Virus record (IMG/VR): IMGVR_UViG_3300025909_000005
DNA length: 64,000 bases
Source of the DNA: a virus
Taxonomy: Duplodnaviria; Caudoviricetes
Direction: 5' to 3' (one strand)
Shown: positions 6,548 to 45,029 of the stretch, in pieces
Layout: each line of letters starts with the position of its first letter
Position numbering within the stretch: the stretch's first letter is position 1
Program-made: the position numbers and the translations under genes
Notes under the pieces: generated by a model
Told to the model about the DNA's origin: nothing
The model's database searches: none
What the model saw: only the letters and a program-made list of their open reading frames with translations

Positions 6548-6724
6548 ATGAAGCTGCACGAACTCACCAACGATCACCACGCCGAGAACAACAAGCCCGA
6601 AGCCGATGAAACGGACGAGGCCGCTTGGGATGCTTGGGACAAGCAGATCGAAGCTGACCTGAAGTCGGGCAAGCTGCAGCCGGTCATCGAGGAAGCTCTC
6701 AACCAGGAAGGCGAACCTCTTTGA
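6548..6724 (+). CDS. putative type II antitoxin (58 aa; missed by ORF track)
   Basis: SD AAGGAG; acidic; AWDAWDKQIEADLKSGKL..IEEAL pattern typical of antitoxins paired with ParE-like toxins; TTGA overlap with the toxin. Confidence 0.65.
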   Translation: MKLHELTNDHHAENNKPEADETDEAAWDAWDKQIEADLKSGKLQPVIEEALNQEGEPL

Positions 6725-7041
6725 TCAAGCACCGTCGCTCAATCGAATTCAAGAAGATGTTTGCGGCTCTGCCGCCGAATATCCAGAAGGAAGCCACTGC
6801 GCACTTTAAGCTGCTGCAGGAAGACCCGTCCAATCCGATCCTCCACTTCAAGGAGTTCCGATCGTCGGGCGGTGGCATCCACAATGACGGCACCTTCTCC
6901 GTGCGCGTCACATCCAACTACCGTGCTCTCGGCACGAAGGTGAACAGCAACCCACAGACCATCGTTTGGTTCTTCATTGGCGACCACAGCGCCTACATGA
7001 AGGTGGCGTCTGCGAAAAAGACCTACTCTCCGAAAAAGTAG
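6721..7041 (+). CDS. RelE/ParE-superfamily toxin
   Basis: LP..IQ..A...F.LL..DP.NP.LHFK...FSVRVT.NYRALG...IVWFFIGDH.AY pattern; basic, 106 aa. Confidence 0.75.
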   Translation: MIKHRRSIEFKKMFAALPPNIQKEATAHFKLLQEDPSNPILHFKEFRSSGGGIHNDGTFSVRVTSNYRALGTKVNSNPQTIVWFFIGDHSAYMKVASAKKTYSPKK

Positions 7042-17528: not shown

Positions 17529-17589
17529 AACGCGCGGGTAATAGCATTAGTGGCTAGATAGCCGCCGCACCCAGTAGTGGCAAGATAGT

Positions 17590-39576: not shown

Positions 39577-40221
39577 ATGCCAAACGCAGTTGTAAAGAGC
39601 TACGCCAAGAAGACTGGAAAGTCGCCTGAGCACATCGAAGGATGGTGGAAGGAGGCCGAGAAGGAAGCCAAGAAGAAGTTCCCAAAGAAGGGCCCTCACT
39701 ACTGGGCGTACGTGAACGGCATCGTGAAGCGCCGTGGTGGCATCAAGGAGGTCATCGGCTTCCGTGACTTCGTTGACCTGCTCTCAGAAGAGGATGGCGG
39801 TGAGAAGGAGTCAGCGCTCTCCAAGATGTCCAAGGAACACGGTCCTGTCCTGGACAGGATCGAGAAGATCAAGGACCTTGGGCGCACCTTCGACAAGGCT
39901 CTCAAGGCTGACGGAGATGAGAAGGCGAAGGGCAACTACGCGCACTGGCTGAAGACGACCGACAAGTACCGAGTCGCCTACTTCACCGACACCGATCTCG
40001 ACATTGAAACCGTCCTCGTCTTCCGCGGCCACAAGTGCTTCGGCCTGGCATCGAAGAACGACAGCGACGCAATCATCGACTTCAAGTTCGTGCCAATGGA
40101 ACGCAGCGACTGGCAGGCGATCGAGGACTTCAGCTTGGACAACCTTGACTCCTCGGCTACAATCACTGATGAGAACCTCGACCACTATGTTGAGATGATT
40201 CTCCAGGCCACTCATAAATAA
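39577..40221 (+). CDS. hypothetical protein
   Basis: SD AAGGA; basic N-terminal half. Confidence 0.7.
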   Translation: MPNAVVKSYAKKTGKSPEHIEGWWKEAEKEAKKKFPKKGPHYWAYVNGIVKRRGGIKEVIGFRDFVDLLSEEDGGEKESALSKMSKEHGPVLDRIEKIKDLGRTFDKALKADGDEKAKGNYAHWLKTTDKYRVAYFTDTDLDIETVLVFRGHKCFGLASKNDSDAIIDFKFVPMERSDWQAIEDFSLDNLDSSATITDENLDHYVEMILQATHK

Positions 40222-40260
40222 ACCAGAGCACAGGTTGAGGCCTGTGCTATAATAGAAACA

Positions 40261-40560
40261 TACTGCAGCAATGCAGTTGTATTGTCGTAATTCGGCATGA
40301 CTTGAAGGATTTGAGACGCGGGTTCGATTCCCGCCGGCTCCACCACAAATCATCTTAGCAAGAACCTTACGCCAACGTTGTGGCAAGGAAAGCAGCAAGG
40401 GTGATTTGTCATGGGGCCGACCAGGCTATCGATCAGGTTACGGAGATGATTGACGCGACACGTCGTAGTGACGTTAAAAACTCGTCTAGTAAACGCAAAC
40501 GACTCCAACTACGCGATCGCCGCTTAATAACCGGCCCGCGCGCGGCATAAGCCACCGTGT
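40261..40560 (+). ncRNA. ssrA: circularly permuted (two-piece) tmRNA: acceptor piece ending CCA at 40345, intervening segment, coding piece from G40413; tag ANDSNYAIAA at 40495-40524
   Basis: GACGCGGGTTCGATTCCCGCCGGCTCCACCA precedes GGGGCCGA; 7-bp acceptor stem with G3.U70; P2 pairing TCAGGTTA/TGACTTGA; TATAAT at 40248; outer ends approximate. Confidence 0.88.
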
Positions 40561-40574
40561 AAAAGAATGAGCTA

Positions 40575-40615
40575 GGACGGACCCGAGGAGCAATCTTTGG
40601 GTCCGTCTGCCTTTC
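40575..40615 (+). terminator. terminator-like hairpin after tmRNA
   Basis: GGACGGACCC...GGGTCCGTCT hairpin. Confidence 0.5.
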
Positions 40616-40676
40616 CAGGTCGATGGACCTGACTTTCGCTTCCATCGTAAATACGTTCAACTTCAAAGGAGTTGAG

Positions 40677-41274: not shown

Positions 41275-41346
41275 GCCTCGGTAGCTCAGTGGTAGAGCGG
41301 ATGCCTCTAAAACGTCGGGTCGTGGGTTCGATTCCCACCCGGGGCA
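41275..41346 (+). tRNA. amber suppressor tRNA, anticodon CUA (copy 1; CCA not encoded)
   Basis: GCCTCGG/CCGGGGC acceptor; anticodon loop CT-CTA-AA; canonical D and T arms; C-A mismatch at 31:39. Confidence 0.85.
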
Positions 41347-41355
41347 CAGATAAGG

Positions 41356-41568
41356 ATGACCATGGGACGTAGACTTTCCCTGCATGAAATGAATGCCATC
41401 AGGCATGAGGACGATGTTCGCAACTCGCAGATCAAGCGAGGCGAATGGAAGCCGAAGACAAACAACAACTATCACTGCGTGTGTGGTTGTGGTGCGTTCG
41501 CATGCGTGTTCGTGAGCTCAATTCCGCAGACGGTCCTGCCCATGGACGAACGATCAAATGTCTCTTAG
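41356..41568 (+). CDS. small Cys-containing protein between the two suppressor tRNAs
   Basis: SD AAGGA; HCVCGCG; stop TAG lies inside the downstream tRNA. Confidence 0.55.
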   Translation: MTMGRRLSLHEMNAIRHEDDVRNSQIKRGEWKPKTNNNYHCVCGCGAFACVFVSSIPQTVLPMDERSNVS

Positions 41569-41634
41569 CTCAATGGGTAGAGCGACGGTCTCTAAAACCG
41601 TATGTTCCGGGTTCGAGCCCCGGAGGGACGGCCA
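41559..41634 (+). tRNA. amber suppressor tRNA, anticodon CUA (copy 2)
   Basis: perfect anticodon stem ACGGT/ACCGT, loop CT-CTA-AA; weak T1.G72, G73, CCA encoded. Confidence 0.9.
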
Positions 41635-43141: not shown

Positions 43142-43498
43142 ATGCAATCGTAGATCCGCGAAGACGCCAAGACCTATCTGTACACCATCTCTCGCCGCGA
43201 CATCCCTCTCGCGCAACAAGCTGTGCAAGCCGGCCACGCCGCCCTTGAACACGCTTACCTCTACGGCCGTCCGGCCGACCATCACCCCTCCTACATTCAC
43301 CTGACGATTCGAGACAAGGAACGGCTCGAGAAGCAACGGCGTGCGCTCCAAGAAGCTGGCATTCCGACGGCCGAGTTCCACGAACCGTACAAGGACTGGG
43401 GTCTCACCGCCATTTCCTGCCTCCTCACCGAGGAACAACGTCACCACCTGAAGGGGCTCCAGCTGTGGCGCCTCCCCACCCAAGGAGAAGAAGCATGA
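43142..43498 (+). CDS. Pth2-like peptidyl-tRNA hydrolase with in-frame TAG at codon 4 (43151-43153); needs amber readthrough
   Basis: SD AAGGA then ATG CAA TCG TAG ATC...; YTISRRDIPLAQQAVQAGHAA...F.EP...LTAI matches the Pth2 fold, with its first strand upstream of the ORF-track start at 43223. Confidence 0.75.
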
Positions 43499-43899
43499 AC
43501 TACACCATCATTGTCCATGAAGAAGCCCGCCATGGTTACGACCGCTGCGGCGACGGCTGGAACGAACCTGGCACCTTCGAGGTGTTCTGCACCTCTGATC
43601 AAACCGAGTTCGTGAAGAAGTGGGCTGAGTTCGACCTGAAGCAGCCATCCGGTTGCTGGGACGACTTCCAGATCCTGTACGATGGCGTGCCGACGGAATT
43701 CGATGACGCGCACTACGAGCTGGAGCGACTCAAGGACATCGAGTACGCCGCGCTGAAGAAGCAGGCCGAGGCAGACAAGCTGGAGGCGAAGCGTCGCGCC
43801 GAGGAAGAAGCCAGGGTGAAGGCGGCTCGTGCCGTCGAAGCTCAACGACAAGCAGACCTCGCGCAGCTCGAGGCCCTCAAAAAGAAGCTGGGAGTCTAA
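43495..43899 (+). CDS. hypothetical protein with coiled-coil C-terminus
   Basis: ATGA overlap, SD GGAG. Confidence 0.7.
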   Translation: MNYTIIVHEEARHGYDRCGDGWNEPGTFEVFCTSDQTEFVKKWAEFDLKQPSGCWDDFQILYDGVPTEFDDAHYELERLKDIEYAALKKQAEADKLEAKRRAEEEARVKAARAVEAQRQADLAQLEALKKKLGV

Positions 43900-43900
43900 C

Positions 43901-44425
43901 ATGAAGATTACGTACAAGGAAAATCCGCTGGCAACCGTCATCGAGCTCGATGACCATGAGAAGGAGGTCATGCGCCTGAAGCTCAAGCTGGAGATCTACG
44001 AGGACCGTGCCTTCGCCGCCCACTGGGCCCTCGCAAACATTGGCAACGAGCTGCGTGGTCAGATTCGAACGAAGGACATGGCCATCGAGCAGGCCATGAA
44101 GGAACTTGACCCTGACTACTTGCTTGCTGAGGATGGTGAGGGTATCGAGAAGCGGACTGACGATCTACTGACGTGGTACCTTCAGGAACTCCAGTCATGG
44201 CACGACGGTGACTGCACGGCCTTCCCCGCGTCTTGCTGCAAGTGCCATGCCGAGGACATGCTTGGTCTCAATACGATCAAGGGAATTGGCAAGCACCAAG
44301 GGTACGCACTGAGCCAGTACTTCGCCCGTGGTCGCACGCTCAATGAGCTCATCGAGGACGTGTCCCTGAAGCAGGAGCTTCGTGACTGGCTCAGTGAACA
44401 TCGCGAGCGGCTATCTAGCCACTAA
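43901..44425 (+). CDS. hypothetical protein
   Basis: SD GGAG; HDGDC..F..SCCKCH metal-binding-like motif. Confidence 0.7.
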   Translation: MKITYKENPLATVIELDDHEKEVMRLKLKLEIYEDRAFAAHWALANIGNELRGQIRTKDMAIEQAMKELDPDYLLAEDGEGIEKRTDDLLTWYLQELQSWHDGDCTAFPASCCKCHAEDMLGLNTIKGIGKHQGYALSQYFARGRTLNELIEDVSLKQELRDWLSEHRERLSSH

Positions 44426-44459
44426 TGCTATTACCCGCTCGCTCACTAAGGAAAGTAAC

Positions 44460-45029
44460 ATGACGTAGGTTTTCTCCCCCAAGCTGCAGGCTCTTCGTGA
44501 GAAGATGGCCGCCTGCAACCAGACCCAAGGCCAGACCATTCTCCAGCACGGCGAGTCCGTGGCCGAGTGGTACAAGGACCTGATTGGTGCACGCACACGT
44601 GAGTGGCGCCTGCCTGACTGGTTCGATCCCGCCCTCTTCGAGCTCTGCCCAGATGTGGGGACGATGGAGCGCTACCACATCTACCATGATTGTGGTAAGC
44701 CGTACTGCCGTACGGTTGACGAAGAAGGTCGTCAACACTTCCCTGACCATGCCCGTATCAGCGCCTCCATCTGGCGCGTGACCGGTGGCGACGCGGCTGT
44801 TGCTCGTCTCATCGAACACGACATGGACATGCACACCCTCAAGCCGGCAGATGCCGACACCTACCTGCACCTGGACATTGCTCCAGCTCTGCTTCTCACC
44901 GCCCTTGCTGAACTGCACTCCAACGCCGACATGTTCGGCGGGATCGAGAGCACGTCCTTCAAGATCAAGTTCAAGAACCTCAACAAGCTCGGCAACCGCC
45001 TCATCAACCGCATCAAGGAGATCGCATAA
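44460..45029 (+). CDS. HD-domain phosphohydrolase with in-frame TAG at codon 3 (44466-44468); needs amber readthrough
   Basis: SD AAGGA then ATG ACG TAG GTT TTC...in frame with ORF 44505; H...YHDCGKP...HFPDHA...IEHDM HD motifs. Confidence 0.72.

Follow-up and report, generated by a model that had tools for sequence, protein, structure and literature searches.

Within a 64,000-nucleotide (nt) stretch of viral DNA from IMG/VR record IMGVR_UViG_3300025909_000005 (Duplodnaviria; Caudoviricetes), hereafter called the window, the gene for a predicted HD-domain phosphohydrolase carries an in-frame TAG as its third codon. We consider it likely that this HD gene starts at ATG 44460 and that the TAG is a translational gate, decoded by a suppressor tRNA with the anticodon CUA (tRNA-CUA) that is encoded by this giant phage itself. 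An earlier note on the window, made from its sequence alone, had placed a Shine-Dalgarno (SD) sequence, AAGGA, in front of ATG 44460 with the TAG at codon 3, and both the coordinates and the translation were found to be exact (Table 1). The upstream gene ends with a TAA at 44423-44425. ATG 44460 and a second ATG at 44505 share a frame, lie 45 nt apart and are followed by an open frame as far as the final TAA, and no ATG, GTG or TTG is present between the TAG and position 44505. That the strong SD belongs to ATG 44460 was borne out by a predicted anti-SD duplex of -6.0 kcal/mol, which exceeds that of 70% of the 91 scored genes of the window, while ATG 44505 was said to have no comparable site and indeed reached only -2.5 kcal/mol, the median of random positions. 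Of the window's 250 TAGs on the plus strand, those at 43151 and 44466 alone show the ATG-x-TAG leader layout. This layout is not due to chance, since it returns in 36 of 51 homologue clusters, every time with TAG as the stop.

Homologues were gathered by tblastn, which gave 30 phage records, and by two IMG/VR scans, which gave 80 loci. Reading was carried out both upstream and downstream of the conserved Met, with TAG marked separately, for 83 loci, and clustering of the domain at 70% identity resulted in the 51 clusters. The phages matched by tblastn were nearly all jumbo phages, with hosts that include Ralstonia, Xanthomonas, Stenotrophomonas, Erwinia, Yersinia, Cronobacter, Pectobacterium, Serratia, Acinetobacter and Tenacibaculum; no GenBank phage record came out as near-identical to the locus in a megablast search. 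An in-frame TAG was present somewhere in the HD gene in 44 of the 51 clusters. In 36 clusters, one of which also has an internal TAG, it follows a short ATG leader and lies 4-29 codons ahead of the conserved Met. Four further clusters are PTH2-HD fusions starting M-x(1-7)-TAG, and in another four the TAG is found solely within the domain (codon 18 in L010, codon 34 in the Rak2-like phages, codon 42 in L091 and codon 105 in L043). Seven clusters have a TAG-free HD gene. The internal TAGs, which include an extra one at codon 35 of L054 besides its N-terminal one, are flanked on both sides by conserved domain sequence.

The layout shared by the 36 clusters consists of an ATG, 0-11 codons, the in-frame TAG, 4-29 conserved codons and the conserved Met, and no leader closed by TAA or TGA was seen among the 51 clusters. 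An in-frame ATG lies 1-12 codons ahead of the TAG in 39 of the 40 representatives whose TAG is N-terminal, ATG-NNN-TAG being the commonest leader form (19/40), and leader and body share one frame, with the leader closed by TAG, in all 40. Most TAGs are at codons 2-8, and in most homologues a purine-rich, SD-like motif is found before the leader ATG. In these representatives the TAG is directly followed by A 28 times, by G 7 times, by C 5 times and never by T, which we count in favour of decoding. A contig 98% identical to the window (L004) has the same TAG. A stop codon that is conserved in frame across homologues, with coding sequence on both of its sides, is the pattern of gene-specific programmed stop-codon decoding. 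A DNA motif as the cause of the TAG was rejected, as around it only the TAG itself is conserved and the frame is fixed; a frameshift of the prfB kind was rejected because leader and body share one frame. Several close relatives (among L005-L010) have a 10-mer, ATAGCATTAG, or a near copy of it, at 25-45 nt before the leader ATG. The window has it at 44422-44431 (minus strand, reversed, over the stop codon of the upstream gene) and at 17541-17550 (plus strand), and no enrichment was seen there: 3 matches with at most one mismatch, a number that was equalled or exceeded in 5 of 100 shuffles.

The stretch between the TAG and Met 44505 appears to be translated, judging from its substitution pattern, from homologues that have no TAG, from continuity across the TAG and from the predicted structure. 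Pairwise divergence at the three codon positions was 0.61/0.47/0.72 in the last six codons of the extension and 0.52/0.43/0.69 in the core, against a flat 0.735/0.729/0.74 in an upstream control; in the window's own clade, the values were 0.14/0.22/0.58 for the extension and 0.69/0.76/0.75 upstream. Leu occupies position -4 in 29 of 32 sequences, and the substitutions indicate that the whole gene, extension included, is under purifying selection. The seven TAG-free clusters encode the same N-terminal extension after an ordinary ATG. In Rak2-like phages such as CBB, MIYPNTFEELLHV-M begins directly after a stop and a GGAGG site, and the N-terminus of L075 reads MM-TAG-IYPQNFDELKQA-M, with a homologous extension. 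The TAG of L007 takes the position of a Gln in the window and of a Glu in L005 and L006, and both flanks align; the frame is therefore continuous across the stop.

A model of the protein begun at the codon after the TAG was made with AlphaFold2 from 37 sequences and had a predicted local distance difference test score (pLDDT) of 97.4. Its first helix, residues 4-15, is the N-terminal helix that had been expected and lies in a block with a pLDDT of 95-96. As the helix spans Met 44505 (residue 13), a protein begun at that Met would lose most of it. The contrary case, in which homologues start at the equivalent of Met 44505 and the codons upstream are unconserved, was looked at, and the extension was found instead to be of coding type. 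The annotated proteins RsoM2USA_91 and XacN1 ORF364 do start at the equivalent of Met 44505, because gene callers halt at the TAG.

Table 1. Features of the window that bear on the TAG of the HD gene
Feature	Position	Strand	Basis and remarks
Shine-Dalgarno sequence AAGGA	44448-44452	+	Serves ATG 44460; spacer of 7 nt
Leader ATG-ACG-TAG (start codon, Thr, in-frame amber codon at 44466-44468)	44460-44468	+	Frame reading
Twelve-codon N-terminal extension, VFSPKLQALREK	44469-44504	+	Interval from TAG to Met 44505; coding-type substitutions, homologues, model
Conserved internal Met, start in translation table 11; possible secondary or reinitiation start	44505-44507	+	Invariant in alignment A1, nearly invariant in alignment A2
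Full gene of predicted HD/HDIG-type phosphohydrolase	44460-45029	+	189 codons including TAG; TAA at 45027-45029
PTH2-like gene with the same device (AAGGA, ATG-CAA-TCG, TAG at 43151-43153)	43142-43498	+	Frame reading; 38% identity to XacN1 domain
tRNA-CUA number 1	41275-41347	+	ARAGORN; Rfam tRNA 62.4 bits (cut-off 29); short variable arm, A discriminator
tRNA-CUA number 2	41559-41634	+	ARAGORN; Rfam 61.9 bits (cut-off 29); short variable arm, G discriminator, U1-G72, CCA encoded

The window has a G+C content of 57%, with all of its called genes on the plus strand, and contains 26 ordinary tRNA genes and a transfer-messenger RNA (tmRNA). Its two tRNA-CUA genes stand apart from the main tRNA array, approximately 3 kb upstream of the HD gene. 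When the 3-kb flanks of the homologous loci were analysed with ARAGORN, a same-strand tRNA-CUA was found in 25 of the 51 clusters, sometimes only 6-400 nt from the HD gene. Of the 93 flank tRNAs, 28 are CUA tRNAs. Flank tRNAs were present in 30 representatives, and in 16 of these they are exclusively CUA tRNAs; the searched genomes gave 24-60 tRNA matches each, with one or two CUA tRNAs where these were found. A pattern search combined with ARAGORN detected tRNA-CUA in 11 of 15 large records, including RsoM2USA and CBB, and two CUA tRNAs have been described in each terminal repeat of XacN1 (PMC5852040). The tRNA-CUA sequences fall into two discriminator classes, A73 and G73, and have short variable arms. 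The identity of the inserted residue may not matter, as most TAGs are located either ahead of the first helix, in a tip without structure, or in a variable loop. The idea that a TAG-free HD gene goes together with a lack of tRNA-CUA failed, since G002 has a TAG-free HD gene plus a tRNA-CUA.

A tRNA-like RNA with a CUCUAAA anticodon loop was also observed in or near the HD locus, at L115:1484-1570 (minus strand) and L029:1457-1543 (plus strand). Its D arm is swapped for a longer hairpin, and compensatory changes are seen between the two copies. It is called by neither ARAGORN nor Rfam, and ARAGORN finds no tRNA-CUA in the genomes of L083 and L017, whose HD genes are TAG-gated.

The earlier note had suggested that a second RNA- or translation-related enzyme may be under amber control, and the window does contain two such genes, the HD gene and, at 43142, a PTH2-like gene. 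The PTH2-like protein is 38% identical to the C-terminal domain of XacN1 ORF364 (E 2e-16), and this XacN1 domain passes Pfam PTH2. After the TAG of the PTH2-like gene there is no start codon ahead of the conserved first strand. The two domains were found fused in both orders, as HD-PTH2 in XacN1, L052, L057 and L067, and as PTH2-HD in pT24, L020, L047, L056 and L071. Where PTH2-like genes adjoin HD genes, nearly all of them begin M-x-x-TAG. In G002 and G018 the HD gene is TAG-free while the PTH2-like gene begins MKKDHNIG-TAG and MT-TAG, respectively; a gate placed on the partner makes the HD and PTH2-like genes one functional unit, with the gate on either gene or on both. Modelling of the HD protein together with the PTH2-like protein as a complex gave a score of 0.01, which speaks neither for nor against an association of the two. 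A rhizosphere metatranscriptome contained one 263-nt contig (43008-43269) over the PTH2-like leader, with the TAG unchanged, although this may represent DNA carry-over. At L130:1350-1950, in the genome of L051, a PTH2-like gene contains an in-frame TAG at codon 3 (MT-TAG-V) and a second one within its domain, and in Rak2-like phages the PTH2-like gene beside the HD gene also starts MAQ-TAG or MAH-TAG.

The 174-residue product called with translation table 11 matched PHROG 14850 (E 2.6e-60), a family of unknown function. Residues H15, H61-D62, H82, D106 and H110, counted from Met 44505, are invariant in 15 sequences, and they form the HD metal-binding pattern H...HD...H...D...H with the HDIG-like motif HDCGKP of the HDxGKP type. 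The model is mostly helical, as in the all-helical HD fold. An hmmsearch of the family profile against the PDB matched only chains of 3WFO-3WFS (E 1e-4), with the HD motifs aligned, and the same entries, titled 'tRNA processing enzyme', were the sole significant Foldseek matches (E 1.5e-4, TM-score 0.66); the weaker matches, PgpH, PhnZ and YfbR, are all HD proteins. These PDB entries are ones that we take to be the class II CC-adding tRNA nucleotidyltransferase of Aquifex aeolicus. In the E. coli CCA-adding enzyme, the HD domain acts as a phosphatase and as a 2',3'-cyclic phosphodiesterase. The HD protein of the phage covers just residues about 260-383 of the 497-525 residue chains of 3WFO-3WFS, and its 189 residues contain neither the head nor the neck domain of a nucleotidyltransferase, so that it is not a member of the class II tRNA nucleotidyltransferases. 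Complexes of the A. aeolicus CC-adding enzyme with tRNA are described in a review (PMC3925840). PADLOC gave no match to a defence system. Together, the motifs and the model predict a divergent metal-dependent phosphohydrolase of the HDIG type, whose nearest counterpart of solved structure is the HD domain of class II tRNA nucleotidyltransferases. Taken with the PTH2 fusions and the tRNA neighbourhood, this match makes tRNA 3' ends the most plausible site of action, which fits the suggestion of the earlier note that HD proteins of this type can process nucleotide or RNA ends.

In the mechanism that we propose, ribosomes would load at the AAGGA, make Met-Thr and reach the UAG at codon 3. If no suppressor is present, release factor 1 would end translation there and the enzyme would not be made. 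Once made, processed and charged, either tRNA-CUA could read the UAG, and translation would then continue through the 12-residue extension and Met 44505 as far as the terminal TAA, giving a 189-residue protein. Such a gate would tie the HD enzyme, and with it the equally gated PTH2-like enzyme, to a working phage suppressor tRNA, and its purpose may be that of a timer or of a check of the phage tRNA supply. The HD enzyme would most probably act with the PTH2-like protein on tRNA 3' ends, where possible tasks are the healing of phosphate or cyclic-phosphate ends or the recycling of acylated tRNA. A more speculative extension, which we think has only a small chance of being correct, is a self-limiting loop, in place of a simple timer, in which the gated PTH2-like ester hydrolase and the gated HD 3'-end phosphohydrolase act on the suppressor tRNA itself, or on dipeptidyl-tRNAs dropped at the two-codon leaders. 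If this were true, more suppression would yield more of the deacylating and trimming enzyme, UAG read-through would be held at a safe level, and the system would be a natural tRNA-based homeostat.

Several observations weigh against a suppressor-dependent gate. Passage of ribosomes through the TAG is inferred from comparison, and the only public RNA run found to include part of this region leaves the HD gene uncovered. The nearly invariant Met 44505 could serve for reinitiation, which would give a shorter product when the TAG is not suppressed. The A that commonly follows the TAG may merely reflect a preferred Ile codon. For the two tRNA-CUA, the nearest phage tRNAs are 63-75% identical and of many types, and so point to no particular amino acid. 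Some of the seven TAG-free clusters have an adjoining tRNA-CUA, and the gate is therefore dispensable. The protein also falls short of the domain cut-offs, with 18.8 bits against a cut-off of 22 for Pfam HD (PF01966) and 21.4 bits against 27.6 for TIGR00277 (HDIG), its only NCBIfam match; going by these models, it is at most a divergent member of the superfamily.

The alternative that survives best, although we regard it as unlikely, is that Met 44505 is the true start and that ATG-ACG-TAG is an upstream mini open reading frame (mini-ORF, or minigene), which works by termination-reinitiation or by ribosome recruitment with no read-through. The near invariance of Met 44505, a very short leader resembling known minigenes and the public annotations that begin at the equivalent of this Met are all in keeping with it. 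A mini-ORF requires neither a particular frame nor a particular stop, yet all 40 representatives are in frame and end in TAG, with zero TAA or TGA. It also does not explain why the 12 codons that follow the TAG show coding-type evolution and are homologous to the true N-termini of TAG-free relatives, or how the four clusters with TAG only at codons 18-105 are translated, as reinitiation there is beyond rescuing the domain. The sister PTH2-like gene offers no start codon between its TAG and the conserved first strand, and the SD of ATG 44505 is at the random level. Finally, in both alignments the Met is conserved even in homologues that start upstream of it, and it stays conserved where it is unable to be a start. 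A mixed form is possible, with a short isoform made by reinitiation and a long isoform made by suppression.

It is very improbable that the phage uses code 15 genome-wide and that the HD gene is just one of many with an in-frame TAG. The phage does have tRNA-CUA, and TAG terminates just 2 of the 92 called genes (285-893 and 6721-7041). These two genes have a second in-frame stop 6 or 12 codons further on, so suppression would add only a short tail to them. Against code 15, none of the 250 plus-strand TAGs of the 64-kb window has a coding signal on both sides, in-frame TAGs in many genes were not encountered there, and the two N-terminal cases are the only ones; XacN1, for its part, has 18 amber stops in an annotation made with the standard code (PMC5852040). 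Apart from the two leaders, the window follows the standard code.

Of similarly low probability is a restart at a non-AUG codon (AUU, AUC or AUA) directly after the TAG, which would require no suppressor. Although the codon after the TAG specifies Ile in 19 of the 40 representatives, in the window it is GTT, and in 17 of the 40 it differs from AUG at two positions (GTT, GTA, CTT, CTA, ACC, AAC, AAT, GCT, GCA or GGC); moreover, such a restart explains neither the internal TAGs nor the linkage to tRNA-CUA. That the TAG is a chance or disabling mutation of a pseudogene, or an assembly error, has nothing in its favour beyond the presence of a stop codon and can practically be dismissed, given the same TAG in L004, its retention in 44 of 51 clusters and the purifying selection.

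Decoding of the TAG by the phage tRNA remains our preferred explanation, and it predicts that the HD gene is mis-annotated in cultured phages. Rak2-like phages have their TAG at codon 34 after the conserved Met (Pectobacterium phage CBB, L023:562-1128, together with L024, L025 and L094-L099). The gene is divided into two or three coding sequences in CBB (CBB_407/408), fHe-Yen9-03 (g411/g412) and Kaldavass (CDS0236-0234), all annotated as hypothetical, because of the internal TAG. The note and coordinates of GAP32 suggest that its HD gene is split likewise, and in RsoM2USA and XacN1 the start would have been called too late.

Directly upstream of the HD gene, the gene at 43829-44425 (also L001:913-1473) encodes a Cys-rich protein with the motif GDCTA...C.CHAE, and RsoM2USA_92 matches it (E 2e-8 over 38 residues). 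The stop codon of RsoM2USA_92 is itself the TAG in front of the HD extension, with which the gene is in frame, so read-through there could also fuse both proteins. The tmRNA of the window (40181-40618) scores as the Betaproteobacteria type (Rfam RF01850, 91.9 bits) and also as a permuted tmRNA. This hints at a betaproteobacterial host, consistent with the best named homologue being from a Ralstonia phage.

Phages that use code 15 (TAG to Gln), such as the crAss-like and Lak phages, encode suppressor tRNAs (bioRxiv 10.1101/2021.08.26.457843; PMC9523058; PMC6784885). They share with the window a phage tRNA-CUA that reads TAG, a standard-code host, avoidance of TAG as a terminator and a proposed role in timing. 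In the code 15 phages, however, TAG is spread across many, mostly late genes, whereas here it is found once in each of two small tRNA-related genes beside the tRNA, which is a gene-specific gate and not a change of code. In the XacN1 study, read-through of the 18 annotated amber stops was considered and revealed no target of the suppressor tRNAs (PMC5852040), and the Summit phage is likewise described as having suppressor tRNAs without known targets. XacN1 ORF364 is a homologue of the window gene (43% identity) from the same phage group, and the target we propose in XacN1 is a two-codon leader, ATG-AAG-TAG, in frame right before ORF364. A search that sets out from annotated stops cannot reveal such a leader. 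As to the enzyme, the H...HDxGKP...H motifs align with those of the HD domain of class II tRNA nucleotidyltransferase (3WFO-3WFS), but the phage protein is a stand-alone domain of 174-189 residues without a head, is only 18-21% identical, and is known here from sequence and a model.

In prfB, which encodes release factor 2, an early in-frame UGA is passed by a +1 frameshift and senses the level of release factor 2. The HD gene resembles prfB in having a conserved early in-frame stop, in being translation-related and in that its synthesis would depend on the decoding state; it differs in that leader and body are in one frame (40/40) and that the reader would be a dedicated tRNA. The bar sequences of phage lambda are minigenes, and an unsuppressed leader of the HD gene would likewise amount to a two-codon minigene. 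In synthetic suppressor-tRNA circuits, an early amber codon makes the output dependent on the suppressor (PMC7969014). Unlike those circuits, the device described here is natural and conserved. The literature that was searched, which is incomplete, reports genome-wide recoding in gut and jumbo phages, but neither for this HD family nor for its PTH2 partner did it yield an account of a TAG gate. What this analysis newly brings for the HD gene is a family-wide count with turnover of TAG position and a coding test of the extension together with its structural role; the placing of its HD domain with that of tRNA nucleotidyltransferases, the HD-PTH2 fusions and the split annotations in cultured phages are also new.

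Suppressor tRNAs are common in large phages that use the standard code, and their purpose has been an open question. If the gate is true, the HD gene and its PTH2-like partner would be concrete, conserved targets that are readable only by the phage's own tRNA, and would provide a natural example of the amber-gate logic known from synthetic biology.
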